Origin: Parcubacteria bacterium C7867-006 | Lineage (GTDB): Bacteria; Patescibacteriota; Minisyncoccia; Phycocordibacterales; DATDWN01 | Assembly (NCBI GenBank): GCA_001189155.1 | Contig: LFCP01000001.1 | Span: forward strand, 23,160-87,159 | Direction of reading: 5' to 3' | DNA length: 64,000 nt | Part shown: positions 1,944 through 46,441 of the stretch, piece after piece | Numbering within the stretch: the stretch's first letter is position 1 | Layout: every line of letters begins with the position of its first letter | Program-made: the position numbers and the translations under genes | The notes under the pieces: model-generated | What the model was told of the DNA's origin: nothing | Databases searched by the model: none | Seen by the model: the letters and a program-made list of their open reading frames with translations, nothing else

Positions 1944-3923
1944 TTAGAAATCTATACTAAACAAAGGAGCTTTTGGACTCTCACCAAATCCCTCTCTGTC
2001 TATATATTTAGAAGGTATATCATCTATAAACTCAGATGGAGAGTTAACTTCCATTGTACCAAATATAGTGCGTGTTTGGGCGTACGTTAAAAACAACTTT
2101 TTTCCAGCTCTTGTTACTGCTACATAGAATAACCGTCTTTCTTCCTCAGCATCTTCTCCAGATTTTCTAGATTCGCCCATACCTTTATGTGGGAATAAGT
2201 CATTTTCAAGGCCACAAATAAAGACATAATTAAACTCTAACCCCTTTGATGCGTGTACTGTCATTAGTCTTACTCCAGTTTTTTCTCCATCTAGAGAATC
2301 TTGGTCTGAGGCTAGTGATGTATCGGTTAAAAACTTCTCGATTCCCTCCTCTGGGGTCAGTTCGTCATATTTTGTAGCTAAGGTCACCAACTCCATAATG
2401 TTTTCAAGTCTGTCTGTGTCTTCCTCTAATCCCGTTTTTAGAGAGTCTTCGATACCTGATTTTTTAACAATATATTTTAAAGCTTCACTTGGCTTTTCTG
2501 TTGTTAGGACGTTTTTAAAATCCAAAAGCATTTTCCTAAAATTATTTATTTTTATTTTCATGCTTTCTGGAAGTTCACTCTCTTTTCCTTCCATTATTTT
2601 TTGAAGAGTGGTTTTGCCTATTCCTCTAGCTGGAATATTTATTATTCTTGCAAAGTCGCTGACATTTTCTGGATTAAGGCTTGCCCTTATAAAACTAACC
2701 ATATCTTTTATTTCTTTTCTTTCAAAGAACTTTGTTCCTAGCATTTGATATGGAACCCCATATGAAAGAAATGCATCTTCCAAAACTCTAGATTGAAAGT
2801 TTGCTCTATATAGAACAGCTATATGATCTGCTTTTACCCCGTTTTCTATTAGCCATTTTGATTTAAGCGCAATAAAATGTGCCTCATCTATCTCGTTTCT
2901 TCCTTCAAATAACCCTATTTTTTCTCCAGAATCATTTTCTGTAAAAAGTTTTTTTGGTATACGAAAATTATTTTTTTCTATTATTTCATTCGCTACTGCT
3001 AGAATATTTTTTGTTGAACGATAATTCTGTTCTAGAAAAAAAGTTTGAACTTCTGGATATGATCTTTCAAAATGCAGCATATTTTTTATTTCTGCACCTC
3101 TCCAGCTGTATATGTTTTGGTCCGTGTCTCCTACAACACAGATGTTTCTATTTTTTCTGGCAAGCATTTCAACTATTGAGTTCTGGACTTTGTTTGTGTC
3201 TTGGTACTCGTCTATATGGATGTATAAAAACCTTTCTTGGTATTTAGTTAAAACATCAGGATATTTTTCTAGAAGTTTTAAGGTCTTAAGGAGTAAATCA
3301 TCAAAGTCTAATGCATGTTCTTTTTTCAAGCTTTCTTCATAAAGAACCCAGACTTTTTTTGTCATTTCTGAATTAAAATCATAACTTGCTCTTTCCTCGT
3401 ATTCGGAGACGGTTACTCCTCTTCCCTTTTCTCCAGATATTATGTGACGAACACGTTCTAAATGTTCTTTGGGATCAAGTCCAACTTTTGTTAAAACATC
3501 TTTTAAAGTTTTTTTAGTATCAGATGTGTCAAAAATACTAAAATGTCTTGGCAGTTTTAAAATCTCTGCATTTTCTTTTATTATCTGCACTCCCAATGAG
3601 TGAAAGGTGCTGATAAAAGGAGCTCTCTTTCTTAAGTGGGCTAAATTAGTATCGTTTTCTAACAAAGACATAACTCTCTCCCTCATTTCTCTCGCAGCTT
3701 TGTTTGTAAATGTTATAGCTAGAATCCTTTCTGGAGATACCCCACTAGCAATAATATGTAGGATTCTATGTGTTAGGGTTTTTGTTTTGCCTGCTCCTGC
3801 TCCAGCCACGATGAGTACCGGTCCTTCGGTAGCTAAAACTGCCTTTTTTTGTTCAGAATTAAGAGAGTTTAAGTAATATTTTTTATCTTCCATTGCGAGA
3901 TTATAGCATTTTCGTATATCCAC
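1944..3923 (-). CDS. pcrA: UvrD/PcrA-family ATP-dependent DNA helicase
   Basis: Walker A GAGAGKTKTLTHR, DEYQDTN motif and VTRA near the C-terminus; 659 aa. Confidence 0.85.
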   Translation of the reverse strand: MDIRKCYNLAMEDKKYYLNSLNSEQKKAVLATEGPVLIVAGAGAGKTKTLTHRILHIIASGVSPERILAITFTNKAAREMRERVMSLLENDTNLAHLRKRAPFISTFHSLGVQIIKENAEILKLPRHFSIFDTSDTKKTLKDVLTKVGLDPKEHLERVRHIISGEKGRGVTVSEYEERASYDFNSEMTKKVWVLYEESLKKEHALDFDDLLLKTLKLLEKYPDVLTKYQERFLYIHIDEYQDTNKVQNSIVEMLARKNRNICVVGDTDQNIYSWRGAEIKNMLHFERSYPEVQTFFLEQNYRSTKNILAVANEIIEKNNFRIPKKLFTENDSGEKIGLFEGRNEIDEAHFIALKSKWLIENGVKADHIAVLYRANFQSRVLEDAFLSYGVPYQMLGTKFFERKEIKDMVSFIRASLNPENVSDFARIINIPARGIGKTTLQKIMEGKESELPESMKIKINNFRKMLLDFKNVLTTEKPSEALKYIVKKSGIEDSLKTGLEEDTDRLENIMELVTLATKYDELTPEEGIEKFLTDTSLASDQDSLDGEKTGVRLMTVHASKGLEFNYVFICGLENDLFPHKGMGESRKSGEDAEEERRLFYVAVTRAGKKLFLTYAQTRTIFGTMEVNSPSEFIDDIPSKYIDREGFGESPKAPLFSIDF

Positions 3924-4170: not shown

Positions 4171-5211
4171 GTGGGATCTACCATTTCCTCGGTGAACATA
4201 TTTGCGTCAATAATCCCAATTTTTCTAATTTTGACGTTATTTTTAGCCCCAAAAACTACACATGCAGGTGTTAGTGATGTTACCTGTTCTATATTTGGGA
4301 TTTTTTGTCCTGTAGAAGCAGAGACAGAAGAACTAGAGGCAAATTCTCAGAACATGGCCCTTCTTCAAGCTGTCATTTCTCCAGACCCAAAAGCTTCTTC
4401 AACAAAAGATAACTCTGTCATTGTTGGTGGTAATTCCCTTGCTCCAGAGACTCAGGCACCAGAATCTAAATCAATAGAGGATGATCAGATTAGTTTATAT
4501 GTTGTTCATCAGGGAGACACCTTGCCAGCTATAGCCAAGATGTTTGGTGTTACAGTAAACACAATAAGATGGGCTAATGATATAAAAGGTAACACAATAA
4601 GTGTCGGTCAAACTTTGGTAATTCTTCCTATATCTGGAATACAACATACTGTTAAATCTGGAGATACACTTCAAAGTATTGCTAAATTACATAAAGGAGA
4701 TTTGAATGAAATATTGCAATATAACAACTTAACTAAAGATGCAAAACTAGCAATCGGAGATATCATTGTTATTCCAGATGGTGAGGCAACAGTCACAACA
4801 AGTTCTTCTGGAACAAAAACTGGAACTACAAAACCTAGTTCCTCATATCCTGTTTACGATGGTTACTATATGAGACCTATAATAGGTGGAATTAGAACTC
4901 AAGGAGTTCATGGTCATAACGGTGTTGATTTGGCTTCATCATATGGCGCAAAGATTTATGCTGCTGCTGATGGTGATGTTATTATTTCAAGAAGTTCTGG
5001 ATGGAATGGTGGTTATGGTTCATATATTGTAATCAAGCATGGAAATGGAACACAAACTTTGTACGGACATTTGAGTGGAACTGCGGTTTCTGCTGGTCAA
5101 CGTGTTACACAAGGACAGGTAATAGGATATATGGGTAACTCAGGACAGGTAACGGGACATACTGGAGTACATCTACACTTTGAGATTCGTGGTGCCAGAA
5201 ATCCATTTTAA
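4171..5211 (+). CDS. Secreted peptidoglycan hydrolase with two LysM domains and a C-terminal M23 peptidase domain
   Basis: N-terminal signal/TM segment. Two LysM repeats (YVVHQGDTLPAIAKMFGV..., HTVKSGDTLQSIAKLHKG...). M23 motifs HNGVDLA and GHTGVHLHFEIR. Confidence 0.8.
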   Translation: MGSTISSVNIFASIIPIFLILTLFLAPKTTHAGVSDVTCSIFGIFCPVEAETEELEANSQNMALLQAVISPDPKASSTKDNSVIVGGNSLAPETQAPESKSIEDDQISLYVVHQGDTLPAIAKMFGVTVNTIRWANDIKGNTISVGQTLVILPISGIQHTVKSGDTLQSIAKLHKGDLNEILQYNNLTKDAKLAIGDIIVIPDGEATVTTSSSGTKTGTTKPSSSYPVYDGYYMRPIIGGIRTQGVHGHNGVDLASSYGAKIYAAADGDVIISRSSGWNGGYGSYIVIKHGNGTQTLYGHLSGTAVSAGQRVTQGQVIGYMGNSGQVTGHTGVHLHFEIRGARNPF

Positions 5212-5366
5212 CACTCAGGTCTTTTTCCTGAATCTCATCGTCTAAAATTTGAAAAATATCTTCACCGTACTATAAGTACGCCTCAGATAATTTTTAAAAT
5301 TTTATACGCGACCTTCAGGAAAAATCCTCTGAGTTATTTTTCAAATTTGATTTTTTTAAAAACCAA

Positions 5367-6929
5367 CTACAAAGTTTGATATTTCTTAGGACGATACTGG
5401 AGAGCTTCTAAAATGTGGTTTTCAGAAATTTCTTTCTCCCCTTCCATATCAGCAATAGTTCTCGCTAGTTTGATAATGCGATGATATGAACGCGCAGAGA
5501 GGTCTAGTTGTTTTGCTGAATTATTTAAAACCTCTTTTACTTTATCTGAAAGTTTTATATGAGAGACTAAATCTTTTGCCGTTAGTTCAGCATTGGTTTT
5601 TATTTTTAATTTTTTATATCTACCTTCTTGTATTTTTCTAGCCTTCCCTATTCTCGGAATTATTTTTTCAGTTTTTTCGTGAAGATCCCTTGAGTCAGTT
5701 AGTTTACCGTGTTCTATCTTTGAAACTTCAACCCATAAATCTATTCTATCTACTATTGGTCCAGATAATTTTCTTTTATATCTTTCTATTGCTTGTACTG
5801 AACAAGTGCAATCTTTGCCTTTTACTCCTAGGTTTCCGCACGGACAAGGATTCATTGTGGCAACCAAAATAAAATGGGCAGGATATTTTACTGAACCTTT
5901 TGCGCGAGAGACCGTCACCACTCTGTCTTCTAGAGGTTGTCTTAAAGTTTCCAAAACTTTTCTATCAAACTCTGGGAATTCATCTAGAAACAAAACTCCT
6001 TTATGGGCCAAAGTCACTTCACCGGGTTTTAGGTTTGTTCCTCCTCCAACCAAAGAGACATATGATGCTGTGTGGTGAGGTGAACGAAAAGGAGGATTCT
6101 CTATTAGACCTTCTTGTAGGATTCCGCCGATAGAATAAATAGATGTAACCTCTAGCATCTCATCAAAAGAAAGTTTTGGAAGTAAGTGCGTAAAAGCTTT
6201 TGCCAGCATAGTTTTTCCAGTTCCAGGTGGGCCATACATTATGATGTTGTGTCCTCCAGCCGCAGCTATCTCAAGTCCCCTTTTTGCGGACTCCTGACCC
6301 TTTACATCTGCAAAGTCTACTTCAATTTCTCTTTTTATTTTCTTTTTCTTTTTGCTCTTGTATAAAGGAAGAAAAATTTTTTGAACAGGATTTGTTTCCT
6401 CATCATATTCTTTTGTGTTTATATGTTTCACCACATCGAGAAGTGACTCTGCTCCGTAAACTTTTATTCCATTTATACTAGAAGCTTCCTCAGCATTTTC
6501 AATTGGCAAAAATATTTCTGTGAAACCATGCTTCGCTGCCATCTGTGCTATAGGCAGAGCACCTTTGATTGGTCTAAGTTTTCCATCCAAAGATAATTCG
6601 CCAATGAATAACCTGTTTTCAACAGACGCTTCTATGTCTCCGGAGGCGATAAGATAAGCTAGTGCAATAGGTAAATCAAACAACGGTCCTTCTTTTTTAA
6701 TATCTGCTGGGGCCAGTGAAACAACAACTTTTTGATTTTTGTTTTTAGGAGATTTCCAGCCAGAATTTTTTATTGCAGCTCCAACTCGGTCTTTTGATTC
6801 ATCAACGGATTTATCGGCTAGGCCGACTATAGAAAAAGAGTGGAGCCCTTTTGAGAGATCCACCTCTATATCTATTAACTGTGCGGAAAGTAGTATTGCT
6901 TGAGCTGAATATATTTTTGAAACAGCCAT
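5367..6929 (-). CDS. comM: YifB/ComM family Mg-chelatase-like AAA+ ATPase
   Basis: Lon-like N-terminal domain, Walker A GPPGTGKTMLA and a ComM/YifB-like C-terminal region. Carries an internal KKKKKIKRE Lys-rich insertion. Confidence 0.85.
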   Translation of the reverse strand: MAVSKIYSAQAILLSAQLIDIEVDLSKGLHSFSIVGLADKSVDESKDRVGAAIKNSGWKSPKNKNQKVVVSLAPADIKKEGPLFDLPIALAYLIASGDIEASVENRLFIGELSLDGKLRPIKGALPIAQMAAKHGFTEIFLPIENAEEASSINGIKVYGAESLLDVVKHINTKEYDEETNPVQKIFLPLYKSKKKKKIKREIEVDFADVKGQESAKRGLEIAAAGGHNIIMYGPPGTGKTMLAKAFTHLLPKLSFDEMLEVTSIYSIGGILQEGLIENPPFRSPHHTASYVSLVGGGTNLKPGEVTLAHKGVLFLDEFPEFDRKVLETLRQPLEDRVVTVSRAKGSVKYPAHFILVATMNPCPCGNLGVKGKDCTCSVQAIERYKRKLSGPIVDRIDLWVEVSKIEHGKLTDSRDLHEKTEKIIPRIGKARKIQEGRYKKLKIKTNAELTAKDLVSHIKLSDKVKEVLNNSAKQLDLSARSYHRIIKLARTIADMEGEKEISENHILEALQYRPKKYQTL

Positions 6930-9924: not shown

Positions 9925-10881
9925 ATGGCTTCTTTAAAGCAGTTAAAACAACAATTTCTTGAATATATAGAGATAGAAAGAGGACGTTCGGTGAAAACTG
10001 TTGAAAATTACGACCACTACCTTAGTCGTTTTTTTGAATTTATAAAAACAGACAAGCCAGAGGAGATAAAAGATGAGGTTGTGCGACAATTCAGACTTTG
10101 GCTCAACCGCCAACCAACAGGAAATACCAAAGTTCCAAATGAAACTCTCTCTAGAAAAACTCAAAACTACTATCTTATTGCAGTTAGAGCTTTTCTTAAA
10201 TATCTAGCAAGGCAGGAAATCAAATCACTTCCAGCCGAAAGGATAGAGTTAGCAAAAGTCGGAGAACGTTCACTCGATCTTATTACCGAAACAGAGCTTA
10301 ACCGTCTCCTCAATTCTCCAAAAGGTACTGATTTAAAAGATTTAAGAGATAAAGCCATTCTAGAGCTTCTTTTTTCTACCGGTTTACGAGTTTCAGAGCT
10401 ATGTTCCCTTACATCAGATATTGATTTAAGCTCTGACGAAATAAGTATCCGAGGAAAAGGAGGAAAAGTTAGAGTGGTATTTATTTCAGACGAAGCAAAA
10501 AGGCATTTAAGAGCATATCTTTCTGCTAGAAAAGATATGAATGAAGCTTTGTTTGTTCAAGTTGGTGTTGAAATAAAGAAAAAATCAATCCAGAGCAAAA
10601 ACGGAGTTAAGAAAAATGGAGAAAAAGAAATCGGAGCCTTAACTAAGCGTTCTATAGAGAGAATTGTAAAACAACACGCCACAAAAGCTGGTATTTCTAA
10701 AAAAGTTACCCCGCATACCATAAGACACCTTTTTGCTACAGGGCTTCTTTCAAATGGTGCAGATATTCGGTCAGTTCAAGCAATGCTTGGACATTCGAGT
10801 ATTGTCACAACACAGATATATACTCATGTTACTGATAAACATTTAAAAGATATTCACAAGAAGTTTCATAAAAAGAACTAA
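9925..10881 (+). CDS. xerC: Tyrosine recombinase XerC/XerD family
   Basis: SAM-like N-terminal domain. C-terminal catalytic motifs HTIRHLFAT...LGHSSIVTTQIYTHV. Carries an internal Lys-rich insertion. Confidence 0.85.
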   Translation: MASLKQLKQQFLEYIEIERGRSVKTVENYDHYLSRFFEFIKTDKPEEIKDEVVRQFRLWLNRQPTGNTKVPNETLSRKTQNYYLIAVRAFLKYLARQEIKSLPAERIELAKVGERSLDLITETELNRLLNSPKGTDLKDLRDKAILELLFSTGLRVSELCSLTSDIDLSSDEISIRGKGGKVRVVFISDEAKRHLRAYLSARKDMNEALFVQVGVEIKKKSIQSKNGVKKNGEKEIGALTKRSIERIVKQHATKAGISKKVTPHTIRHLFATGLLSNGADIRSVQAMLGHSSIVTTQIYTHVTDKHLKDIHKKFHKKN

Positions 10882-10898
10882 GTTGATACAATAACTTT

Positions 10899-11696
10899 AT
10901 GAAAATTATCTCTTGGAATGTTAATGGAATAAGAGCAGTTCATAAAAAAGACCTATTTGTGCCTTTTGTTGAAAAATACAAGCCGGATTTGCTTTGTTTG
11001 CAGGAAACTAAGGCACAGGAATATCAAAGTGAAGTAGATTTGCCAGAATATGAGGAATATTGGAACTCTGCAGAAAGAAAAGGTTATAGTGGTACAGCTA
11101 TATTTACCAAAGAAAAACCCCTCTCTATATTACTAGGTTTGCCAGAGAAGATTACTAAAAAATATGATTGGAATGAAAACGGATATGGTGATCCAAATAC
11201 AGAGGGTCGTGTTACTACTTTGGAATACAATGATTTCTACATAGTGACTGTCTATACTCCGAACGCAAAAGATGACCTCTCTCGCCTATCTCTTCGTCAC
11301 AAACAATGGGACCCAGCTTTTCTGGCTTATGTTAAAGAGTTAGATAAAAAGAAACCAGTTATATTTTGTGGAGATTTAAATGTTGCTCACACAGAAGATG
11401 ATCTTGCTAGACCAAAAGATAATATTGGTAAAAAAGGTTTTACAAATGAAGAACGCGAAGGAATACAGAAAATGATAGATGAAAATTTTGTAGATACTTT
11501 TAGAATTTTTACAAAAGGAAACGGGTATTACACATGGTGGAGTCATTTTGCAAACGCTCGAGAAAGAAATATTGGTTGGAGAATTGATTATATTTTTGTT
11601 AGTAAAAGACTAGAAGGAAAAGTCAAAAAAGCGTTGATACATAAGGATGTTTTTGGTTCTGACCACTGCCCTGTTGAGTTAGATATTTCTATATAA
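10899..11696 (+). CDS. xth: Exodeoxyribonuclease III (AP endonuclease)
   Basis: IISWNVNGIR, LCLQETK and GDLNVAH...SDHCPV motifs. Confidence 0.9.
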   Translation: MKIISWNVNGIRAVHKKDLFVPFVEKYKPDLLCLQETKAQEYQSEVDLPEYEEYWNSAERKGYSGTAIFTKEKPLSILLGLPEKITKKYDWNENGYGDPNTEGRVTTLEYNDFYIVTVYTPNAKDDLSRLSLRHKQWDPAFLAYVKELDKKKPVIFCGDLNVAHTEDDLARPKDNIGKKGFTNEEREGIQKMIDENFVDTFRIFTKGNGYYTWWSHFANARERNIGWRIDYIFVSKRLEGKVKKALIHKDVFGSDHCPVELDISI

Positions 11697-16632: not shown

Positions 16633-16703
16633 GCGGGATTAGTTTATCGGTAAAACGACAGTTTTCCAAACTGTAGTGAGCGGTTCGACTCCGCTATCCC
16701 GCA
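16633..16703 (+). tRNA. tRNA-Gly (anticodon TCC)
   Basis: Acceptor GCGGGAU/AUCCCGC, anticodon loop UUUCCAA, T-arm AGCGGUUCGACUCCGCU. Confidence 0.8.
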
Positions 16704-16749
16704 CAGACGAAAGGCCCCTCGAAAGAGGCGGCCTTTCGCTTTTAGCGGG

Positions 16750-16960
16750 ATAGCGGAGAGAGGGGTCGGGAGAGGATACTCTCCCGTGGAGGAAGGTGAG
16801 GTTGGGATGGGACCCAACCGCAAGACCTTTTTCAGGTATTTTATGAGCAGAGCGAAATAAAATACCGAAAAGGTGTACTGCTCCTGTAAGGAGGGGAGTA
16901 TTTAAAACCGCCGGTTTCCCAGCCCGCGTATTCCCGCACTTTACAATTATTTTTGTAATG
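16750..16960 (+). other. GC-rich structured non-coding element bracketed by tRNA-Gly-like 5' and 3' end sequences
   Basis: Starts GCGGGAUAGCGG (compare tRNA 5' GCGGGAUUAG) and ends UAUUCCCGCAC (compare tRNA 3' UAUCCCGCACA). Internal hairpins GGGAGAG-GAUA-CUCUCCC, GGUUGGG..CCCAACC and GGUAUUUUAU..AUAAAAUACC. Preceded by a 13-bp terminator hairpin at 16706-16745. Confidence 0.3.
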
Positions 16961-18028: not shown

Positions 18029-19561
18029 TTATCGTGCAAATTCTATGTTTCTAGACTCTCTGATTAGTGTAACTTTTATTTCACCAGGATATTTTAGTTC
18101 TGATTCAATACGAAGTGCAATATCACGCGCCATTTTCTTTGCTTCTAGGTCTGTAACTTCAGTTGGTGTAACAAAAATTCTTATTTCACGACCAGCTTGT
18201 AATGCATAAGATTTTTCTACACCTTTAAATGAAGAGGCAACAGCTTCTAGGTCTTTCAATCTCTTCAAATAATTTTCAATACTATCTCTTCTTGCACCAG
18301 GTCGTCCTCCAGATATTGCATCAGCAGATTGAACGATCATTGATTCCAATGTTTCGTAAGGATACTCGTTGTGATGCGCTTCCATTGCTTTGATAATATT
18401 TTCATCAGTTCCAAATTTTTGTAGAATTCTTCTTCCGATTTCAACGTGAGTACCAACAACTTCATGATCAAGAGCTTTTCCGATATCGTGAACTAGTGCT
18501 CCCGCTTTTGCAACCTGAACATTTGCACCGATTTCTTCTGCAATCATTCCTGCGATGTGCGCCATCTCAACAGAGTGTGCTAGAACATTTTGTCCGTAAC
18601 TTGTTCTGAAGTGCAGTCTTCCTAGTATAGAAACAACTCTCGGATCCAAACCAAGCACTCCGGTTTCGTAAACAGCTTCTTCACCTTTTTCTTTTATTGT
18701 TTTTGCAATTTCTGCCTCAGCTTTTTGAACCATCTCTTCAATTTTTGCTGGTTGTATTCTTCCGTCAGCAACCAGTTTCTCGAGAGCGTTTTTAGCTATT
18801 TGTCTTCTGACTGGATCAAAAGAAGAGATTGTGATTGAACCGGGAGTATCATCCACGATAACTTCAACTCCTGTTGCTCTCTCAAAAGCCTTTATATTTC
18901 GACCTTCTTTTCCGATTATTTTTCCTTTTAGCTCATCGTTAGGAATAGCAACTTGGGTAGTTAGCATATCCGAAGAAACAGAGTTGGCCAAACGCTGTAT
19001 TGATGTGGCCAGAATTTCTTTTGCTTTTTCTTCAAGTTTTTCTTGGCCAGATTGTTCTAGTTTTCTCATCTTAACCAAAATGTCTTCTTCTGATTCTCTC
19101 TCAACTTTTTTTATAATTTCTTCCCTAGCTTCTTCTTGTGAAAGTTTTGCAATTTTTTCTAACTCTTCTTTTTTCTGAGACTCAAGTAGTTCCGCATTTT
19201 GTCTGATATTTTTTATTTCTTCAATTCTTTTTTTTACTTCTTCTACTTCTTTATCTATTTCTGTTTGTCTATGATCAAGAAGCTCATCTTTTTTGATAAG
19301 TCTTTCCTCATTTTTTTTGTTATCTTCTTCTTTCTGCTTTATTTCTACTCGGGCTACTTTCAGTATTTCTTCAGCTTTGTTTTCCGCCTCTTCAATTATT
19401 TTCTGTTCTCGGTCTTTGGCTTCCAACATCATTTGTTTGATGTCGAGTTCCATTGATCCTCGTCTTCCTCTTGAAACCAAAATTCTCAAACCGTAACCAA
19501 GCGCCAATGAAACCAGTGACGCTGTGCTCAACATGAGCGCAATTATTTTTAATGAAAACAT
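18029..19561 (-). CDS. rny: Ribonuclease Y
   Basis: N-terminal TM segment, coiled coil, KH domain (GKIIGKEGRNIKAFERATG) and HD domain (HSVEMAHIAGMIAEE...VHDIGKA). Confidence 0.9.
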   Translation of the reverse strand: MFSLKIIALMLSTASLVSLALGYGLRILVSRGRRGSMELDIKQMMLEAKDREQKIIEEAENKAEEILKVARVEIKQKEEDNKKNEERLIKKDELLDHRQTEIDKEVEEVKKRIEEIKNIRQNAELLESQKKEELEKIAKLSQEEAREEIIKKVERESEEDILVKMRKLEQSGQEKLEEKAKEILATSIQRLANSVSSDMLTTQVAIPNDELKGKIIGKEGRNIKAFERATGVEVIVDDTPGSITISSFDPVRRQIAKNALEKLVADGRIQPAKIEEMVQKAEAEIAKTIKEKGEEAVYETGVLGLDPRVVSILGRLHFRTSYGQNVLAHSVEMAHIAGMIAEEIGANVQVAKAGALVHDIGKALDHEVVGTHVEIGRRILQKFGTDENIIKAMEAHHNEYPYETLESMIVQSADAISGGRPGARRDSIENYLKRLKDLEAVASSFKGVEKSYALQAGREIRIFVTPTEVTDLEAKKMARDIALRIESELKYPGEIKVTLIRESRNIEFAR

Positions 19562-19773: not shown

Positions 19774-19903
19774 ATAAAACTCGTAAATCTGGCAAATTTC
19801 TGTGTTGCTAGGATTATTTGCTCCACGCGCAGTACTATAATGTACAGCTTGGTCACAAATAATCCGTCGCGCCTTGAACTTTACTCAGATTTACGAGTTT
19901 TAT
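19774..19903 (-). repeat. Structured repeat element, copy 1: nested long hairpin (18-bp outer and 10-bp inner inverted repeats) homologous to 41722..41834
   Basis: Outer ataaaactcgtaaatctg / cagatttacgagttttat; inner ggattatttg / caaataatcc; conserved core GUUCAAGGCGCGACG...UAGUACUGCGC.UGGAG...CUAGCAAC. Confidence 0.6.
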
Positions 19904-19926: not shown

Positions 19927-20499
19927 CTATAAAACTTTATCCACGATTCCGTATTTTTTAGCCTCCTCAGCTGACATAAAGAAATCTCTATCCATATCTT
20001 TTTCTACTTGAGCTAGGGGTTTACCTGTATTTTTAGAGAATATTTTGTTCAGACTGTCCTTGTTTTTAAGCATTTGTCTAGCTGTAATTTCAATATCTGA
20101 GACTTTTCCTTCAATTCCTCCTCCCCAAGGTTGGTGGATCATAACCTCTGCGTTAGGCAAAGAGAATCTTTTACCCTTTGTCCCTGCAGCTAGTATGTGA
20201 GCGCCCATAGAAGCAGCTATCCCTACAGCAACTGTAGAAATATCGTTCTTTATATGGTTCATTGTGTCTATAATAGCCAAACCTGCTGTAACGCTACCTC
20301 CAGGAGAGTTTATATAGAAAGAAATATCCTTTTTTGGGTCTTCTGACTGCAAAAATAGCATTTGAGCTATGATGAGGTTAGCTACGTGGTCATCAATTGG
20401 ACCATCTAGAAAGATGATATTGTCTCGTAAAAGTCTAGAGAATATATCGTATGCTCTCTCTCCAAACTGTGATTTTTCTATTACTGTTGGTATTAACAT
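19927..20499 (-). CDS. clpP: ATP-dependent Clp protease proteolytic subunit
   Basis: ClpP fold with the catalytic Ser in GIAASMGA, plus MIHQP. Confidence 0.9.
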
Positions 20500-20604: not shown

Positions 20605-20790
20605 CTACTGGAAACGCGATCTTCCTTCCGATGTGGTCCTCAGCCCGACGGTTTCGTCCTGGGTCGGGTTGTTTTTGGGAAGGTTGTTGTACTCGGGACA
20701 CGCCTTGCCGTGCCCTGCATTTCCATGGAAAGTCTGGTTGCACCACGGGCACTCGCGTTCCCGAGGCGGGTCCACAAAAGATCTTGGCAT
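20605..20790 (-). CDS. Small Cys/His-rich protein (61 aa, putative zinc ribbon) in GC-rich mini-cassette B
   Basis: About 60% GC. GGAGGAGGAG SD immediately upstream of ATG. CPWCNQTFHGNAGHGKAC motif. GC hairpin terminator gagggcccgg..ccgggctc followed by T6 at 20550-20590. Confidence 0.5.
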   Translation of the reverse strand: MPRSFVDPPRERECPWCNQTFHGNAGHGKACPEYNNLPKNNPTQDETVGLRTTSEGRSRFQ

Positions 20791-20822
20791 ACTCCTCCTC
20801 CGAAATATGTTATCATTTTGTC

Positions 20823-21527
20823 ATGAGAATTCATAGATTCTACATAAGTACACCAATAACTGATAAAAAGTTTGATATTTCAGATAGGGAGTTAGTTCAT
20901 CAGTGGAGGTCAGTATTTCGTTATAATGTTGGTAGTCAGGTTATTCTTTTTGATGGAAGCGGGGTAGACTATGTTTGCATGATAACCTCAATCAGAAACC
21001 TCGGCGCATCCGTAGAAGTATTTAGTGAGAAAAATACAGAGCTTGCACCACGTAGGAATATCTACCTGTGTATGGCGCTTGTTAAAAAGGATAACTTTGA
21101 ACTTATTGCGCAAAAAGCTACAGAACTTGGTGTTAACCATATTATTCCAATACTATGTGAGCATAGTGAAAAGAGAAAATTAAATATGGAGAGATTAAAA
21201 AAAATTACGATTGAAGCCTCTGAACAGTCTGGTAGGGGAGATGTTCCAACTATTTACGAAATAATGAAGATCGAAGAGATCTTCCAGAAGGGTATTCTCC
21301 CTCAAGAAAAAATAGCTCTTCATCCAGAAGGTGAAGGTATTCATAAATATTTGTCAGGGTTAAATAGTGTAAACTCCTTTGCTGTTTTTATTGGTCCAGA
21401 AGGAGGATTTAGTCCAAAGGAAATAGAACTTTTTAAGTCATATAACATATCAGTCATATCTCTAGGTTCTCAGATTCTGCGTGCAGAAACAGCAGCTATT
21501 GCTACTGCAAGTATTTTATTGATTTAG
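20823..21527 (+). CDS. rsmE: 16S rRNA (uracil1498-N3)-methyltransferase RsmE
   Basis: MRIHRFYI start, PUA-like N-terminus and a SPOUT C-terminus (GPEGGFSPKEIE). The listed ORF from 20631 is an upstream extension running into cassette B. Confidence 0.8.
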   Translation: MRIHRFYISTPITDKKFDISDRELVHQWRSVFRYNVGSQVILFDGSGVDYVCMITSIRNLGASVEVFSEKNTELAPRRNIYLCMALVKKDNFELIAQKATELGVNHIIPILCEHSEKRKLNMERLKKITIEASEQSGRGDVPTIYEIMKIEEIFQKGILPQEKIALHPEGEGIHKYLSGLNSVNSFAVFIGPEGGFSPKEIELFKSYNISVISLGSQILRAETAAIATASILLI

Positions 21528-25980: not shown

Positions 25981-26029
25981 TCAATAAAACAATAATATCA
26001 GCAACTAAATTATTTGTCAAATTAATAAA

Positions 26030-26300
26030 GAGAGGGGGCCTGTCCGAAGACAAGGCCCCCTCTGGTTTTGGTGCGGGACGTTATTAGTCCGCACCTAGGG
26101 TATAGGAATACCCTATAGCATCCAAGTCTAGATCTAAAAGACAATGATTACGACTACGGCGTGCTCTCAAGTCCCAGATGTACGTCTGTGGACGAGGCAC
26201 AGGTGACGGACTAATCATTGGTTTTGATCTAAATGAGTGTTGCGGGCACCCACTGGTGATATGGACTTGTCACCATTACGACACGGCGTCCGTCACCCCT
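26030..26300. promoter_or_regulatory. GC-rich highly structured leader/intergenic element between divergent nusA and pilB
   Basis: Hairpins AGAGGGGGCC..GGCCCCCUCU (10 bp), UAGGGUAU-AGGA-AUACCCUA and GGUGACGGAC...GUCCGUCACC (10-bp inverted repeat spanning about 75 nt). No ORF. Confidence 0.3.
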
Positions 26301-26373
26301 CAAATGTAAACGATATGCAGATTATTGCTTTAGTCAATTATTTTTATTTCTTATTAACATATGCGATTAGAAA

Positions 26374-32122: not shown

Positions 32123-32165
32123 TAAAACTTTCCTTTTATCCGTCTAAATCTGATATAATCGGGTT

Positions 32166-32934: not shown

Positions 32935-34074
32935 ATGAAATACATTGATGAATTAAAGGGTGACGATCTGAAAGGTAAGTATGTTTTACTTAGACTTGAT
33001 TTGAATGTTCCTGTGTCTAACGGACAAGTTGTTAATGCATATAGAATAGACAGAGCAATTCCAACTATAGATTATTTGAGAGAGCATGGGGCCAAAGTGA
33101 TTATAATCGCTCATACTGAAAGCGATGCAAATATGACTCTTGTTCCGGTTGCGCAGTATTTAAGTGGTTTTTTTAAAATTGATTTTTGTCAGACCTACTT
33201 TAATCCAATAGCTATAGATAAAATATCAAAACTAGAAGATAGAGGTGTTTTGCTTTTTGAAAATCTCAGAATAAATCCAGAAGAAAAAGAAAACAATATA
33301 GAATTTGCAAAAAAATTAGCTCAAATGGCAGATATCTACGTTGATGATGCTTTTGGTGCAATGCACAGAAAGCACGCTTCCATTATAGGAGTCCCGGAGT
33401 TTCTTCCTCATTATGGTGGTTTGCTTTTGAAACAGGAGATTGAAAATCTATCAAAAGTTTTTTCTCCAAAGAAACCATTTCTATTTATTGTTGGTGGAGT
33501 GAAGTTCAGCACAAAACTACCTTTAATTAAAAAATATTTAGATAAGGCCGATTATGTTTTTATTGTTGGAGCTTTAGCTAACGGGATTTTTAAGGAGAAG
33601 GGTTTCACTTTGGGAACATCGCTATCTATTGATGGAGATTTTGGCATTAAAGAATTAATGAATAAGGATAATTTTTTGTATCCTATTGATGTAACAGTTC
33701 AAAAATCAGATGGATCTTTTGAATTCAGAAATCCAGATGAAATAGGTAACGACGAATATATCGGAGATCTTGGTCCAAAAACTATGGAAAAATTAAAGGA
33801 ATTGATTGGTATTTCAAAAACTGTCGTTTGGAATGGACCTTTGGGTGATTTTGAAAAAGGTTTCAAGGATAAGACAGAACAATTAGCAGAGGTTATTATG
33901 AAAGCTACAGAAGAAGGAAAGATAGAGAGTATTGTTGGTGGAGGTGATACTTTGGCTTCAATAAATATAAATGAGTTTGAGCATGGGTTTACTTTTGTCT
34001 CTACTGGTGGTGGAGCAATGCTTGATTATCTTGTCAACGAAACACTACCCGGCATAGAAGCATTAAATAAATAA
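32935..34074 (+). CDS. pgk: Phosphoglycerate kinase
   Basis: LLRLDLNVP N-terminal motif and GGGDTLA...STGGGAML C-terminal motif. Confidence 0.9.
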   Translation: MKYIDELKGDDLKGKYVLLRLDLNVPVSNGQVVNAYRIDRAIPTIDYLREHGAKVIIIAHTESDANMTLVPVAQYLSGFFKIDFCQTYFNPIAIDKISKLEDRGVLLFENLRINPEEKENNIEFAKKLAQMADIYVDDAFGAMHRKHASIIGVPEFLPHYGGLLLKQEIENLSKVFSPKKPFLFIVGGVKFSTKLPLIKKYLDKADYVFIVGALANGIFKEKGFTLGTSLSIDGDFGIKELMNKDNFLYPIDVTVQKSDGSFEFRNPDEIGNDEYIGDLGPKTMEKLKELIGISKTVVWNGPLGDFEKGFKDKTEQLAEVIMKATEEGKIESIVGGGDTLASININEFEHGFTFVSTGGGAMLDYLVNETLPGIEALNK

Positions 34075-34076
34075 AA

Positions 34077-34100
34077 TAAAACCGCCAATTGGCGGTTTTA
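34077..34100. terminator. Bidirectional intrinsic terminator shared by pgk and the HIT gene
   Basis: aaaaccgccaattggcggtttta. Confidence 0.75.
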
Positions 34101-34102
34101 TT

Positions 34103-34471
34103 TTATATAAACTCTTTTATCTTTTTTAAATTCTCTTCAAAATCTTTTGGATTGCCGGAGACTTCTTTGTTTGGAAACACCCATATATGAGCGTGGGGGA
34201 CTTCGTCTCCTATTATTCTAGATAATATAAAATCAGTATTAAAAGCTGATCGGAGAGCTAGAGCCACTTTTTTTGCTACTTCAAAATACTCTCCAGTGTT
34301 ATCAGTGTCCCAAACCCATCGAACGTGCTTCTTTGGGATTATTTGAGTATGTCCAGGGGATTGGGGGTTGATGTCTAGAAAAGCTAGATAATTATCATCC
34401 TCATATACTTTATATGAGGGTATTTCTCCAGCTACTATTTTGCAAAATATACAGTTTTCCATGGACTTCAT
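34103..34471 (-). CDS. HIT-family nucleotide hydrolase
   Basis: HIT motif HAHIWVFP and a CxxC N-terminus. Confidence 0.7.
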   Translation of the reverse strand: MKSMENCIFCKIVAGEIPSYKVYEDDNYLAFLDINPQSPGHTQIIPKKHVRWVWDTDNTGEYFEVAKKVALALRSAFNTDFILSRIIGDEVPHAHIWVFPNKEVSGNPKDFEENLKKIKEFI

Positions 34472-40398: not shown

Positions 40399-41307
40399 AT
40401 GCGAAGTGCCTTTTCCCATTTCAAAACCTATTTGCGTTGGTATATATTAGTTTTTCTAATAATTCTGAGTACTTTAATTTGGTTTGCTGTATTTCATGAA
40501 AACAGACAGGGCATTCTTACTTTTGAAGTTTTAAATATTGGTCAGGGTGATGCTCTTTGGATCGAGTCTCCAACTGGGGTCCAAGTTTTGGTTGATGGTG
40601 GGCCAAACAATACTTTGATGAAAGAAATATCAAAAGTGATGCCTTGGTATGATAGACACATAGATATGTTGGTGGTAACAAATCCGGATAAAGATCACTT
40701 TGAAGGTTTTATTTCTCTTTTAAAAAAATACTCTGTTGACGTTGTTTTGGAACCTGGTACTGAAAATAATACTGATACATATAAAACTTTAGAAAAAGAA
40801 ATTGATGATAAAAAAATTCCAAAAGTTTTGGCTCGTCGTGGTCAGGTGGTGGATTTGGGTGGGGGAGCTTATTTACAAATACTTTTTCCAGATAGAGATG
40901 TCTCAGGATTGTCTTCAAATGACGGTTCTCTTGTGATGAAACTAGTTTATGGGGAAACAACCGTTATGCTTACAGGAGATTCTACAGAAAAAATAGAGCA
41001 TTATCTTGTGAGTATGGATGGAGAAGGTCTAAAAAGCACAATACTTAAAGCTGGTCATCATGGAAGTAGAACTAGTAGCAGTGAAGAATATGTTAGCGCT
41101 GTTAATCCGGAGTGGACTGTGATTTCTTCTGGGATAAAAAATGATTACGGTCATCCTCACAAAGAAACTATTGAGACTATGCAAAAATTAAAAATCCTAA
41201 CATATGATACCTGTAATAACGGTAGAATCATTTTTGTCTCGGATGGAGAAAAATTTGTACTAAAAAATAAAAATATAAAAGAAGCTGTTGTTGGGTGTAA
41301 AATTTAA
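40399..41307 (+). CDS. MBL-fold metallo-hydrolase (ComEC C-terminal-like beta-lactamase domain) with an N-terminal TM segment
   Basis: VLNIGQGDALWIE...LVVTNPDKDHFEGF...LKAGHHGSRTSSS...YGHPH. Confidence 0.7.
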   Translation: MRSAFSHFKTYLRWYILVFLIILSTLIWFAVFHENRQGILTFEVLNIGQGDALWIESPTGVQVLVDGGPNNTLMKEISKVMPWYDRHIDMLVVTNPDKDHFEGFISLLKKYSVDVVLEPGTENNTDTYKTLEKEIDDKKIPKVLARRGQVVDLGGGAYLQILFPDRDVSGLSSNDGSLVMKLVYGETTVMLTGDSTEKIEHYLVSMDGEGLKSTILKAGHHGSRTSSSEEYVSAVNPEWTVISSGIKNDYGHPHKETIETMQKLKILTYDTCNNGRIIFVSDGEKFVLKNKNIKEAVVGCKI

Positions 41308-41358: not shown

Positions 41359-41643
41359 GTGAGACACGCCAAATTTGAGCAGTATACTTTCCGGTATACT
41401 GTCCCAAGCACTGACGCACAAGGAGAGGAGACGAGGGTGAAAAGAGAGATTCCCCTCGGTTTCAAGACCAGAGAGACAGCTTTGGCGATGGTGAGGGAAT
41501 ACGCCATCAGCCTCAGCTCTGACCCGAATCTTCAAGGGTTCAAGCTCATCTGCCCAGACGATTCCGAGATCGAAATCGATGTCTCGGGGGTGGTTCGGGT
41601 GAACGAGACGGCGCTGGGGATGCTTTCCCACAGCCGGCCTTAA
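41359..41643 (+). CDS. Small protein (94 aa) of unknown function in GC-rich mini-cassette D
   Basis: AGGAGG SD 5 nt before a GTG start. About 55% GC. Upstream TTGACA-17 promoter. Terminator acgaccgg..ccggtcgt followed by a T-run at 41668-41710. Confidence 0.5.
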   Translation: MRHAKFEQYTFRYTVPSTDAQGEETRVKREIPLGFKTRETALAMVREYAISLSSDPNLQGFKLICPDDSEIEIDVSGVVRVNETALGMLSHSRP

Positions 41644-41721
41644 TCTCAAGTTCTACACAAACAAAACGACCGGGCCTATCAAGGTTCCGGTCGTTCTCAT
41701 TTTTATTTAAGTTTGTGTGGA

Positions 41722-41834
41722 TTTTTGTTTGAGTTCAAGGCGCGACGTTTTATTTTTGACTAAGCTTTACATCTAGTACTGCGCATGGAGAAAATAAAAC
41801 TAGCAACGAAGAAATCAGACAAAAAGACGACAAA
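41722..41834 (+). repeat. Structured repeat element, copy 2 (homolog of 19774..19903)
   Basis: Shares GUUCAAGGCGCGACG, UAGUACUGCGC(A/G)UGGAG and CUAGCAAC..AGAAAU. Inner stem GUUUUAUUUU / AAAAUAAAAC shows compensatory changes relative to copy 1. Confidence 0.6.
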
Positions 41835-42077
41835 CTATACTATTCCTGCTTTGTGGAGTGTGGCGTATGCTCCGTTTTTCTGAATAGTTTTTATTCCTTT
41901 TGTAGATAGAGTTAAAGTTACTGATTTTTTAAGTTCAGGAATGTAGATCTTCTTTTTCTGAAGATTTGCGTATCGTCTTTTTACTCCAGTTGGGTTGAAC
42001 TGTGTAGCACGAGTTCGGTTAGAGTAACCTCCACCTAACTGAGATGATTTGTTTGTTATTGCGCAGACTTTTGCCAT
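41835..42077 (-). CDS. rpmB: 50S ribosomal protein L28
   Basis: MAKVCAITNKSSQLGGGYSNRTRAT...; 80 aa. Confidence 0.85.
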   Translation of the reverse strand: MAKVCAITNKSSQLGGGYSNRTRATQFNPTGVKRRYANLQKKKIYIPELKKSVTLTLSTKGIKTIQKNGAYATLHKAGIV

Positions 42078-44207: not shown

Positions 44208-46349
44208 ATGAACCGCGATTATTCATTAGATAAAGTTCGAAACTTCGGTATTATTGCTCACATTGACGCAGGAAAGACAACAACTTCAGAGCGTGTGCTT
44301 TTCTATACAGGAATGACTCACAAAATCGGTGAGGTGCACGAGGGAGAAACTGTTACAGACTGGATGGAGCAGGAGAGAGAGCGAGGTATCACTATTACAG
44401 CTGCTGCTATTACTTGTTTCTGGAACCCAACATACAAACCAAAGGGACAGAAGCCAGAGTATCGATTTAACGTTATTGATACACCGGGTCACATTGACTT
44501 TACAGCTGAAGTAAAAAGATCTCTTAGAGTTTTGGACGGCGCGGTTGTTGTGTTCGATGGAGTTGCTGGAGTAGAACCTCAGTCAGAAACTAACTGGAGA
44601 TACGCTGATGATGGAAACGTTCCACGAATCTGTTTCATCAACAAACTGGACCGAACGGGTGCATCTTTTGAGCGTTCATATGCTTCTATTCTAGATAGAC
44701 TAACTAAAAATGCTGTTAGAGTTCAGATTCCTATCGGACTTGAAGATAAGTTTGAGGGGGTTATCGATCTTTTGAAAATGAAGGCGTTTTACTTTGAGGG
44801 AAACATGGGAATGACTATTAGAGAGGAAGAAATTCCTGCTGAGTATTTAGATGAAGCAAATAAATACAGAGCTGAGCTTGTTGAAAAAGTTGTCGAGCAA
44901 GATGATACTTTGATGGCCGCATATTTAGAAGGAAAGGAGCCTTCATTTGATGACTTAAAGGCTACACTTAGAAAAGCTACTTTGGCGGTTAAGCTAGTGC
45001 CGGTATTTGCTGGTTCAGCTCTGAAAAACAAAGGAGTTCAGTTGGTGCTAGACGGTGTGGTTGATTATCTACCATCTCCACTAGATATTCCTCCTGTTCA
45101 CGGAATTGATCCAAAGACAGGTGGTGAGATATATAGAAATGCATCTGACACAGAACCTTTTGCAGCGCTTGCATTCAAACTTCAGAACGACCCATTCGTA
45201 GGACAGCTAACATTCTTTCGAGTATATTCTGGAACAGTAGAAGCTGGTACATATCTATATAACTCAACTACAGGTGAGAAAGAAAGACTGGGACGTATTG
45301 TGCGACTACAGGCAGATAAACGAGAAGAAGTGAAAAAAGTTTTTGCCGGAGAAATCGCAGCCGCTGTGGGACTAAAGTCAGCAAAGACTTCTCACACGCT
45401 TTGTGATGAAACAAATCCGATCATCCTAGATCCTATTAAATTCGTTGCACCTGTGGTGTCTCTACGAATTGAACCAAAAACAAAAGCAGACCAGGAGAAA
45501 ATGGGTATGGCTTTGAAGAAACTTTCTGACGAAGATCCAACTTTTGTTATTTCATCAAACACAGAAACAGGAGAGTCTATTGTTTCAGGAATGGGTGAGC
45601 TACACCTTGAAATTATGGTTGATCGTATGAAAAGAGAGTTCGGTGTTGAAGTAAATGTCGGTAAACCTCAAGTAGCATACAGAGAGACTATTTTGGGAAC
45701 TGCAGAAGCAGAGCACAAATACATCAAGCAGACTGGAGGTAAGGGTCAGTATGGTCACGTTAAACTGACAATCAAACCAATGGAGAAGATTGAGGAGGGA
45801 GATAAAATTCCAAAGAATGTTAAAAGATACGAAGACTTTGAATTTATTGACTCAATCAAAGGAGGAGTTATTCCACAGGAGTTTATTCCTGCAGTTGAAA
45901 AGGGAGTTCACGAGGCTATGGATAGAGGAATCGTTGCTGGTTTCAAAATGGTAAATATTTCTTGTGAACTAACATTCGGTTCATACCACGATGTGGACTC
46001 ATCTGAAATTGCATACAAGATTGCAGCATCACAAGCCTTCCAAGAAGCAGCTAAAAAAGCAAAACCAGTTATTCTAGAACCTATTATGAAAGTTGAAGCT
46101 ATAATGCCAGAACAATTCATGGGAGATGTGACTGGTTCACTTTCAGGTAAACGAGGACAGATAGAAGGAATGGATGAAAGAGGAATGCTTCGAGTTATTC
46201 ATGCAAAAGTACCTCTATCAGAGATGTTCGGTTATACAACAGATATCCGATCTATGACACAGGGAAGGGGTTCAGTGATGATGGAGTTTGATCATTATGA
46301 AGTTGTTCCTCCTAATGTTGAGAAACAAATAGTAGAAAGCAGAAAATAA
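44208..46349 (+). CDS. fusA: Elongation factor G
   Basis: AHIDAGKTT and DTPGHIDF motifs; 713 aa. Terminator at 46355-46388. Confidence 0.95.
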
Positions 46350-46441
46350 TTAAACAAAAAACTCACCGTACGGTGAGTTTTTTGTTTTAATACACAGAAT
46401 TTTTTGCTAGTACATTTTAAAAAAGTTACAATGTATGCATA

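Follow-up and report, generated by a model that had tools for sequence, protein, structure and literature searches.

We describe a family of dispersed palindromic elements of 122-127 bp, without an open reading frame (ORF), in a 64,000-nt stretch of Parcubacteria bacterium C7867-006 (contig LFCP01000001.1, positions 23,160 to 87,159; hereafter the window) and in related genomes. The family is probably a non-autonomous mobile hairpin, of the class of the ERIC, Correia and REPIN miniature elements, and is found in Candidatus Zambryskibacteria (Parcubacteria; Candidate Phyla Radiation, CPR), the host clade of the window. A preliminary description of the window had noted two copies of a structured repeat and had left three options for it: a small-RNA family, a protein-binding cruciform or a miniature mobile element. 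The last fits best, as the element is present or absent at orthologous spacers, lies in both orientations and carries subfamily arms that recur at unrelated sites. It has the descriptive features of a MITE (miniature inverted-repeat transposable element), being small (under about 300 bp) and non-coding, with terminal inverted repeats common to copies at unrelated loci, with dispersed copies, and with insertion polymorphism between related genomes.

Results

Twenty distinct copies in eight genomes or metagenomes were identified with two covariance models, R1 built from four copies and R2 from 15. The DNA examined was the window together with about 0.35 Mb of related loci (L numbers below) obtained around homologues of RNase Y, HU and the MBL-fold protein, roughly 0.4 Mb in all; the RNase Y homologues among the matches listed, at 82-98% identity, are named Candidatus Zambryskibacteria, Parcubacteria or Paceibacterota, and the MBL-fold protein of the window is 100% identical to one of Parcubacteria bacterium C7867-006 on a 255-kb contig. 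The 20 copies score 53-142 bits (E 1e-9 to 1e-32), have common loop sequences, lie in both orientations and occupy 11 distinct spacer positions. Seven of them were located in about 30 kb of one contig (L079 and L110) and three in 11-15 kb (L104, L077), a density of up to one copy per 4-5 kb in some relatives. Copies 1 and 2 of the window exist as first described and the blocks quoted for them are exact, while a third, more diverged copy showed that they are not the only ones (copy 3, Table 1). The 15-mer GTTCAAGGCGCGACG and the 17-mer block TAGTACTGCGCRTGGAG are each present just two times in the window, even if three mismatches are permitted, against 0.41 and 0.03 occurrences expected.

The outer arms of the element are 16-20 bp long, and three arm types define the subfamilies A, B and C. 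Subfamily A arms (AAAACnnnnAAATCTG) are present in at least nine copies, subfamily B arms (AGTTTGnnTGGATTTTTGnTTGA) in copy 2, L104 2356 and L104 10906, and subfamily C arms (ACTCAGAGGATTTTTC) in copy 3 of the window and L079 997. Since copies at unrelated loci have the same arms, these are part of the element, and the arm difference between copies 1 and 2, previously taken for one stem diverging by covariation, is a difference between two subfamilies and not drift. Inside the arms lies a conserved asymmetric internal loop (5' side rUUCraGGCGC.., 3' side ..GCAACnnaGAAa..), then an inner stem of 10-11 bp whose sequence varies freely while its pairing is kept, and a conserved apical stem-loop (UGAY..GUAY-loop-RUAC). 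The shared blocks were originally regarded as single-stranded; in the family consensus, parts of them pair (UUC/GAA, GC/GC and GUAC/GUAC).

Presence and absence at orthologous spacers

Filled and empty states, or different fillings, were found at six spacers among the relatives. The clpP-rny spacer is filled in the same orientation in the window and in L077 (RNase Y 94% identical), the L077 copy having compensated differences in the outer and inner stems, and in L076 (RNase Y 91%) it holds an inverted copy with different arms directly against the clpP stop. The same spacer is empty in L078, L079 and L080 (RNase Y 86-87%), where it is shorter by about one element length and the rny promoter comes almost immediately after the clpP stop. 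The rny-hup spacer is empty in the window, has an antisense copy at the rny stop in L079 and L097, and has a separate sense copy in the hup 5' untranslated region (UTR) in L077; the position after hup is filled in L077 and L079 and empty in the window, L075 and L091. Between ORF488 and tpiA, a B-type copy was present in L104, an A-type copy in L100 and L110, and none in the window. The convergent PGK-HIT spacer is filled in L104 and L110 and has a plain terminator in the window and L100, and the convergent MBL-rpmB spacer has a B-type copy in the window and, at the same site, in L104-L109 (the copy-2 element), an A-type copy in L110 and a plain terminator in L100. Different subfamilies or orientations fill one and the same spacer in different lineages.

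Some further observations concern these spacers. In the empty ORF488-tpiA spacer of the window, AAAACTTTCC...TAAATCTGA resembles two A-type arm motifs and may be the remnant of a deleted copy; the model gives it no score. The rny-hup spacer elsewhere holds other, unrelated long hairpins, GGAAATCAAGAAAACAA...TTGTTTTCTAATTTCC in L091 (1740-2119) and L092 (2249-2566) and CCAGTAGTGAAGTTGACAT...ATGTCAACTTCTACTACTGG in L081 and L084; it gathers hairpin insertions of several families. A 100-N assembly gap was located exactly at the clpP-rny element position in L075 (about 9900), and a run of N at or inside a copy in L090 (about 2430); these gaps in two public assemblies suggest that the hairpin breaks assembly or scaffolding at its position.

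Fold and covariation

All eight copies tested against shuffles fold as one long hairpin (z about -4.6 to -10), among them copy 1 (-55.2 kcal/mol, z = -10.1), copy 2 (-37.6 kcal/mol, z = -4.6) and copy 3 (-51.1 kcal/mol, z = -9.1). In the 20-copy alignment 90.4% of the cells are standard pairs, compared with 63.2% after shuffling and 37-46% in controls with slid 3' partners; double changes with pairing kept were seen in 39 of 46 pairs, the covariation score is 0.679 versus 0.214, and none of 500 shuffles reaches any of the five measures. All four helices contribute, the short UUC/GAA helix and the apical GUAC/GUAC stem among them. The inner stems of the two original copies, GGAUUAUUUG/CAAAUAAUCC and GUUUUAUUUU/AAAAUAAAAC, differ at three pairs, all three compensated, as the earlier account of covarying inner stems had stated. 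Copies at the same site also differ mostly by compensated changes: between copy 1 and L077 3624 there are five double changes, two wobble-preserving changes and no broken pair. The preliminary description had proposed further copies and a larger alignment as a check and had read the pattern as selection on structure; the 20 copies strongly support the fold, and the number of doubly changed pairs indicates that secondary structure, rather than stem sequence, has been maintained, by selection or otherwise. A pseudoknot between the two GCGC blocks was considered and rejected by eye, as L079 12048 loses the second block while the first is unchanged.

Strand preference, stop-codon polarity and flanking TA

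In each of the 17 copies tested (of 20) the sense strand folds better than its complement. The advantage amounts to 4.5-21 kcal/mol under RNA parameters and, in the four copies tested with DNA parameters, to 3-5 kcal/mol. G·U pairs outnumber A·C mismatches by 60 to 11, and by 35 to 11 when three conserved G·U columns are left out (p = 5e-4). Copies that run antisense to their neighbouring genes show the preference just as well, so that it lies in the element itself and does not stem from host transcription.

We also compared the model coordinates of the copies with gene tables and found a fixed polarity. In 16 of the 20 copies a stop codon lies 0-3 nt from the element, and in all 16 it is the 3' end of the element that lies at the stop, the gene being convergent; both ends of L104 10906 are at stop codons. 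Counted by site and subfamily, this corresponds to about 10-11 independent insertions (two-sided p ~0.002). The four exceptions are all sense-oriented: copy 1 and L077 3624 (22-25 nt past the stop), L077 5575 (in a 5' UTR) and L079 9073 (just ahead of a start codon).

TA adjoins both ends in most copies, exactly so in L077 5992, L104 2356, L100 1761, L097 and L081. At the hup site the empty state is AAATAAGCC and the filled state AAATA[AAAAC...GTTTT]TAAGTC, which fits a duplication of TA.

Possible role at gene ends

At the two convergent spacers, PGK-HIT and MBL-rpmB, either an AAAAC-stem-GTTTT terminator or the element is present, the latter taking up the spacer from end to end. No further hairpin lies between clpP of the window and the rny promoter. 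A-type copies have AAAAC at one end and GUUUU(U/A) at the other, that is, a hairpin with a U-run in both directions. From the exchange of element and terminator, the lack of another clpP hairpin and the bidirectional U-runs we infer, with much lower confidence than for the class of the element, that an inserted copy may provide the neighbouring genes with their 3'-end hairpin or bidirectional terminator. A simple terminator scanner does not call the A-type copies, whose stem length and loop size exceed what it accepts. A promoter inside the element was also considered; copy 1 has a perfect TATAAT on its complement, which is not conserved in the other copies, and this candidate was rejected.

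Relation to the GC-rich cassettes

The window contains several short GC-rich segments (Table 1) with a GC content of 50-62% against 36.5% overall. They are unrelated to one another; in most of them a promoter-like site and a GGAGG accompany a small ORF, which has no Pfam match, and a terminator that is itself GC-rich. Both original copies had been said to lie next to such cassettes (copy 1 near cassette B across clpP, copy 2 just after cassette D), and this link did not hold: in L104-L109 the 122-nt MBL-rpmB spacer is taken up entirely by the element and has no cassette, most cassettes of the window have no adjoining element, and clpP intervenes between copy 1 and cassette B, L076 and L077 having the element together with an empty rsmE-clpP spacer. 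The rsmE-clpP spacer has different small ORFs in L078 and L079 and is empty in L076, L077 and L080. L110 has a homologue of the cassette D ORF in the equivalent position (10959-11192), with an A-type element after it. Cassette D and the element simply share one of the few permissive spacers.

Several side observations concern GC-rich DNA. A GC-rich stretch beside a tRNA gene of the window has incomplete copies of the 3' end of the tRNA at its borders, such as AGCGGGATAGCGGAG. Similar tRNA-adjacent stretches are present in L077 (6150-6400), L079 (12260-12640) and L092 (2900-3100), and these stretches look like remains of small elements integrated at tRNA. The rsmE ORF of the window (298 aa) starts about 60 codons ahead of its Pfam domains, compared with 232 aa in relatives, and its upstream stretch overlaps cassette B, which lies on the other strand; the real start is therefore probably located downstream of the listed one.

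Copies and other features of the window

Copy 1 lies between clpP and rny, 25 nt past the clpP stop and about 10 nt ahead of the -35 of the rny promoter (TTGACT-17-TATAGT). Copy 2 lies between a short GC-rich ORF with its own GC-rich terminator and rpmB, and its 3' end runs into the TAG stop codon of rpmB, which is on the opposite strand. Copy 3 is most closely related to L079 997-1129 and is flanked by the convergent genes of an M23/LysM peptidase and a ComM/Mg-chelatase-like ATPase, with its 3' end 1 nt off the peptidase stop codon.

All three window copies are co-oriented with the local gene majority and with a GC-skew switch near 26 kb. A replication bias was considered and rejected, five copies in relatives being opposite at syntenic sites. 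A cumulative GC-skew minimum lies at about 26000-26370, where the majority of genes changes from the minus to the plus strand, nusA reading leftward and the type II secretion/pilus genes rightward; this may be a replication origin region. No significant Pfam match was found for a 1047-aa ORF located between fusA and tuf.

Table 1. Copies of the element and other features discussed, with positions in the window
Feature	Position	Strand	Remarks
Copy 1, subfamily A, element proper (AAAAC...GTTTT)	19776-19901	-	141.7 bits with R2; on the minus strand starts AAAACTCGTAAATCTG, ends CAGATTTACGAGTTTT
Copy 1, hairpin including flanking T-A and A-T pairs	19774-19903	-	
Copy 1, 5' outer arm AAAACTCGTAAATCTG	19886-19901	-	Perfect 16-bp pairing with 19776-19791
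Copy 1, 5' internal-loop block GTTCAAGGCGCGACG	19865-19879	-	Conserved
Copy 1, apical block TAGTACTGCGCGTGGAG	19821-19837	-	Conserved; its GUAC pairs with upstream GUAC
Copy 2, subfamily B	41710-41836	+	115.8 bits with R2; starts AGTTTGTGTGGATTTTTGTTTGA, ends TCAGACAAAAAGACGACAAACT
Copy 2, block GTTCAAGGCGCGACG	41733-41747	+	
Copy 2, block TAGTACTGCGCATGGAG	41774-41790	+	
Copy 3, subfamily C	5213-5334	-	61.9 bits, E = 2e-12; on the minus strand starts ACTCAGAGGATTTTTCCTGA, ends TCAGGAAAAAGACCTGAGT
M23/LysM peptidase gene	4171-5211	+	
ComM/Mg-chelatase-like ATPase gene	5367-6929	-	
Xer-like tyrosine recombinase gene	9925-10881		
tRNA gene	16633-16703		
GC-rich stretch beside the tRNA gene	16704-16938		
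rny	18029-19561	-	
clpP	19927-20499	-	
rsmE ORF	20631-21527	+	
Arm-like motifs in the ORF488-tpiA spacer	32123-32165		
MBL-fold protein gene	40399-41307		
Short GC-rich ORF before copy 2	41359-41643		
rpmB	41835-42077	-	
ORF between fusA and tuf	46442-49585	+	
GC-rich segment	8238-8485		
GC-rich segment	9574-9864		
GC-rich segment	20513-20845	-	
GC-rich segment	26026-26321		
GC-rich segment	36561-37376		
GC-rich segment	41336-41700		
GC-rich segment	62251-63054		
Plain terminator, weak model match	34063-34113		
Plain terminator, weak model match	46345-46393		

Searches in databases and literature

In the window, Rfam 15 in gathering mode found four tRNAs only and no family at a copy of the element, and in E-value mode (up to 10) the two original loci gave chance-level matches only, outside or across the element. 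No match to the element was found by blastn against phage and plasmid collections. Exact-pattern scans of genome, metagenome and viral contigs for further copies returned GC-rich chance matches only; they are uninformative on distribution, because true relatives differ by one or two bases in the required blocks (L076 has GTTTAAGGCGCGAAG and L077 has GGTACTGCGC). Nothing relevant was found in the literature on repeats or structured RNAs in CPR, Parcubacteria and Patescibacteria.

Discussion

Comparison with known miniature elements

Among the closest described elements are ERIC/IRU, imperfect palindromes of Enterobacteriaceae classed as MITEs, which are about 127 bp long with terminal inverted repeats and TA flanks, are often found at gene 3' ends and are co-transcribed (PMC3184786). 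They share with the present element the size, the imperfect hairpin that spans the whole element, the intergenic position in either orientation, the TA at the termini and a presence or absence that varies between related genomes (PMC3184786). However, no sequence relationship is evident, the host belongs to another phylum (here CPR), three subfamilies with distinct arms surround a related core in the present element, and neither the one-strand fold nor the placement of the 3' end at stop codons belongs to the ERIC description that we compared.

REPINs are likewise non-autonomous extragenic hairpins of about 100 nt with compensatory changes (PMC3116915). A REPIN, however, consists of two inverted copies of a short REP palindrome with conserved ends and a variable spacer, whereas the centre is the most conserved part here and the conserved blocks of the two halves are unlike (GTTCAAGGCGCGACG compared with CTAGCAACnnAGAAAT in reverse complement). 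REPINs are mobilised by RAYT, a Y1 HUH transposase whose gene they flank. No Y1_Tnp domain (RAYT) was present in the scanned ORFs of the window or in the gene tables of the fetched loci. Because the halves differ and no RAYT was seen in the loci examined, the element is not a REPIN as defined. A single-stranded DNA intermediate has been proposed for REPINs (PMC3116915), and one of that kind would explain a strand-specific fold in the present element.

A further close kind comprises the Correia elements (CREE) of Neisseria and other TA-targeting MITEs derived from the IS630/Tc1 superfamily. They measure 100-160 bp, have terminal inverted repeats and a TA target duplication, lie beside genes, are co-transcribed and are able to act on transcript ends (PMC3184786). 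Correia elements differ in that conservation lies in 26-bp terminal inverted repeats, that the interior is not one continuous covarying hairpin, and that they carry promoters and an IHF site, while no conserved promoter was found here. The SPRITE (the pneumococcal Rho-independent-terminator-like element), RUP and BOX repeats are dispersed and small too, and some mimic terminators (PMC3184786); in an outline comparison they are unrelated to the present element in sequence and architecture.

Weighing a mobile hairpin against other explanations

Several points weigh against a mobile hairpin of this class or against parts of that account. No transposase, HUH enzyme or free-standing reverse transcriptase (RT) was recognised among the window ORFs, which were scanned against Pfam, or in the precomputed gene tables of the related loci, and in the same DNA no cognate autonomous insertion sequence with the same ends was found, nor any longer parent element with the same arms, the arm motifs occurring only as pairs that bound small elements. 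The strand-specific fold and the fixed stop-codon polarity are two regularities that a plain cut-and-paste MITE does not predict. The TA duplication is compatible with the data and not proven, since the termini are A/T runs and TA is self-complementary. Same-site copies whose flanking proteins are only 69-80% identical could reflect long retention through selection for a host function, and equally repeated insertion. The pair counts rest on model-fitted alignments, the full fold also on single-sequence folds, and MAFFT with RNAalifold on trimmed copies recovered the apical helix only. Finally, B- and C-type copies have no clean U-tract, and for them a terminator role is less convincing.

With a mobile hairpin as the preferred reading, the steps of its movement can be proposed at a confidence much lower than that of the class assignment. 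Copies would be moved in trans by an enzyme encoded elsewhere and would be inserted at TA, which would very often be part of a stop codon. IS630 elements target TA. The intermediate might be either double-stranded (DDE, TA-targeting, as for IS630-derived MITEs) or single-stranded (as for REPIN/RAYT and IS200/IS605). Once in place, the A-tract, long hairpin and U-tract would act as a 3'-end hairpin or bidirectional terminator, judging by the two convergent spacers. A polar or single-stranded mode of insertion would explain both the strand-specific fold and the stop-codon polarity, and orientation-dependent selection on the neighbouring mRNA would explain them as well; for ERIC, orientation-dependent effects on mRNA have been described (PMC3184786). 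We lean towards one or the other, a single-stranded or polar process or orientation-dependent selection at the RNA level.

In its most specific form the mobile hairpin would be a new polar, strand-specific hairpin transposon of CPR bacteria, with a folded single-stranded (DNA or RNA) intermediate whose 3' end docks on a stop-codon TA in one orientation and which installs a ready-made bidirectional terminator or insulator in genomes that have hardly any room between genes, the conserved asymmetric loops being the recognition site of the mobilising enzyme. We consider this form, taken as a whole, rather unlikely.

Improbable, and more so than that form, is the alternative that the copies are small structured RNA genes or cis-antisense RNAs, each giving a product of about 125 nt from its own strand, spread by duplication and kept for a host function such as protein binding through the conserved loops. 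Judged as a structured RNA, the element shows strong covariation and a strand-specific G·U bias, its unpaired blocks are conserved while the stems covary, all 17 copies tested fold better on the sense strand, and copy 1 and its L077 counterpart differ by compensated changes; the U-run at the 3' end lies at the stop of the neighbour in all 16 stop-touching copies, as for a convergent transcript that ends at a gene boundary. Compensatory changes on both sides of the hairpin are, however, common in REPINs as well (PMC3116915), so covariation alone is no proof of an RNA gene. Upstream of the copies, read in their own orientation, no recurrent promoter-like site was found. This speaks against a small-RNA gene that stands by itself, and in that form the small-RNA option of the preliminary description is not supported. 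Moreover, there is no Rfam match, some copies lie in the 5' UTR of another gene (L077 5575) or against a start codon (L079 9073), and the copy content is very different between close relatives, with subfamilies swapping at one site, which is unlike conserved small-RNA genes.

A retro-mobile RNA, that is, a hairpin RNA copied by an RT acting in trans and inserted with fixed polarity, is very unlikely. It would suit the larger sense-strand advantage with RNA than with DNA parameters, the richness in G·U pairs and the polar placement. The sole RT seen is a diversity-generating-retroelement (DGR) type gene in L081 (2352-3386, minus strand; bAvd at 3434-3817), and copy L081 2278-2396 directly follows it and overlaps its 3' end in the same orientation, as is also the case in L082 and L083. 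On the other hand, adjacency to an RT concerns one of the 20 copies, the window has no RT, no promoter for a sense RNA and no poly-A or other mark of retroposition was found, and the palindromic termini with TA flanks resemble a DNA transposon.

Marginally less probable still is an integron attC-like site, or another folded single-strand att site, that captures the GC-rich small-ORF cassettes. The attC sites and Vibrio cholerae repeats are imperfect palindromes of about 60-140 nt that fold on one strand and have AAC...GTT ends, and the element recalls them in its length of about 125 nt, imperfect palindrome, strand-specific fold and AAC...GTT termini. Copy 2 follows cassette D, the homologous small ORF of L110 precedes an element, L079 9073 lies 76 nt from a small ORF, and the window has a Xer-like tyrosine recombinase gene. 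However, that gene is a syntenic core gene in all relatives, and neither an integrase gene (intI) beside any copy, an array nor a common orientation was found. Most cassettes lack the element and most elements lack a cassette, the copy-2 site of L104-L109 being cassette-free. Beyond AAC and GTT, the ends of the element (ATAAAAC ... GTTTTAT) depart from the attC consensus RYYYAAC ... GTTRRRY, and its internal loops are conserved instead of the R and L boxes, whereas attC conserves stems near its ends. Therefore, with the core sites unmatched and no integron, we do not regard the element as attC.

Ordinary intrinsic terminators or chance hairpins in AT-rich spacers can be dismissed: the element occupies terminator positions and the model gives weak matches (about 20-25 bits) to plain terminators of the window (Table 1), yet these lack the core entirely, and the identical 15-mers and 17-mers, far beyond chance, together with 20 copies at 53-142 bits with common loops, rule this explanation out.

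Implications

The family is new, while its general kind, a small palindromic mobile repeat, is known; no such element was found described in the CPR literature. Genomes of CPR/Patescibacteria are small, tightly packed and usually described as repeat-poor. The element bears on the annotation and assembly of these genomes and, sitting where terminators normally lie, on how gene ends are defined in them. It also provides a clean natural case of a mobile element with RNA-like covariation, which is a warning for those who search for RNA motifs, and its one-strand fold and stop-codon polarity make the mechanism of its movement worth finding.

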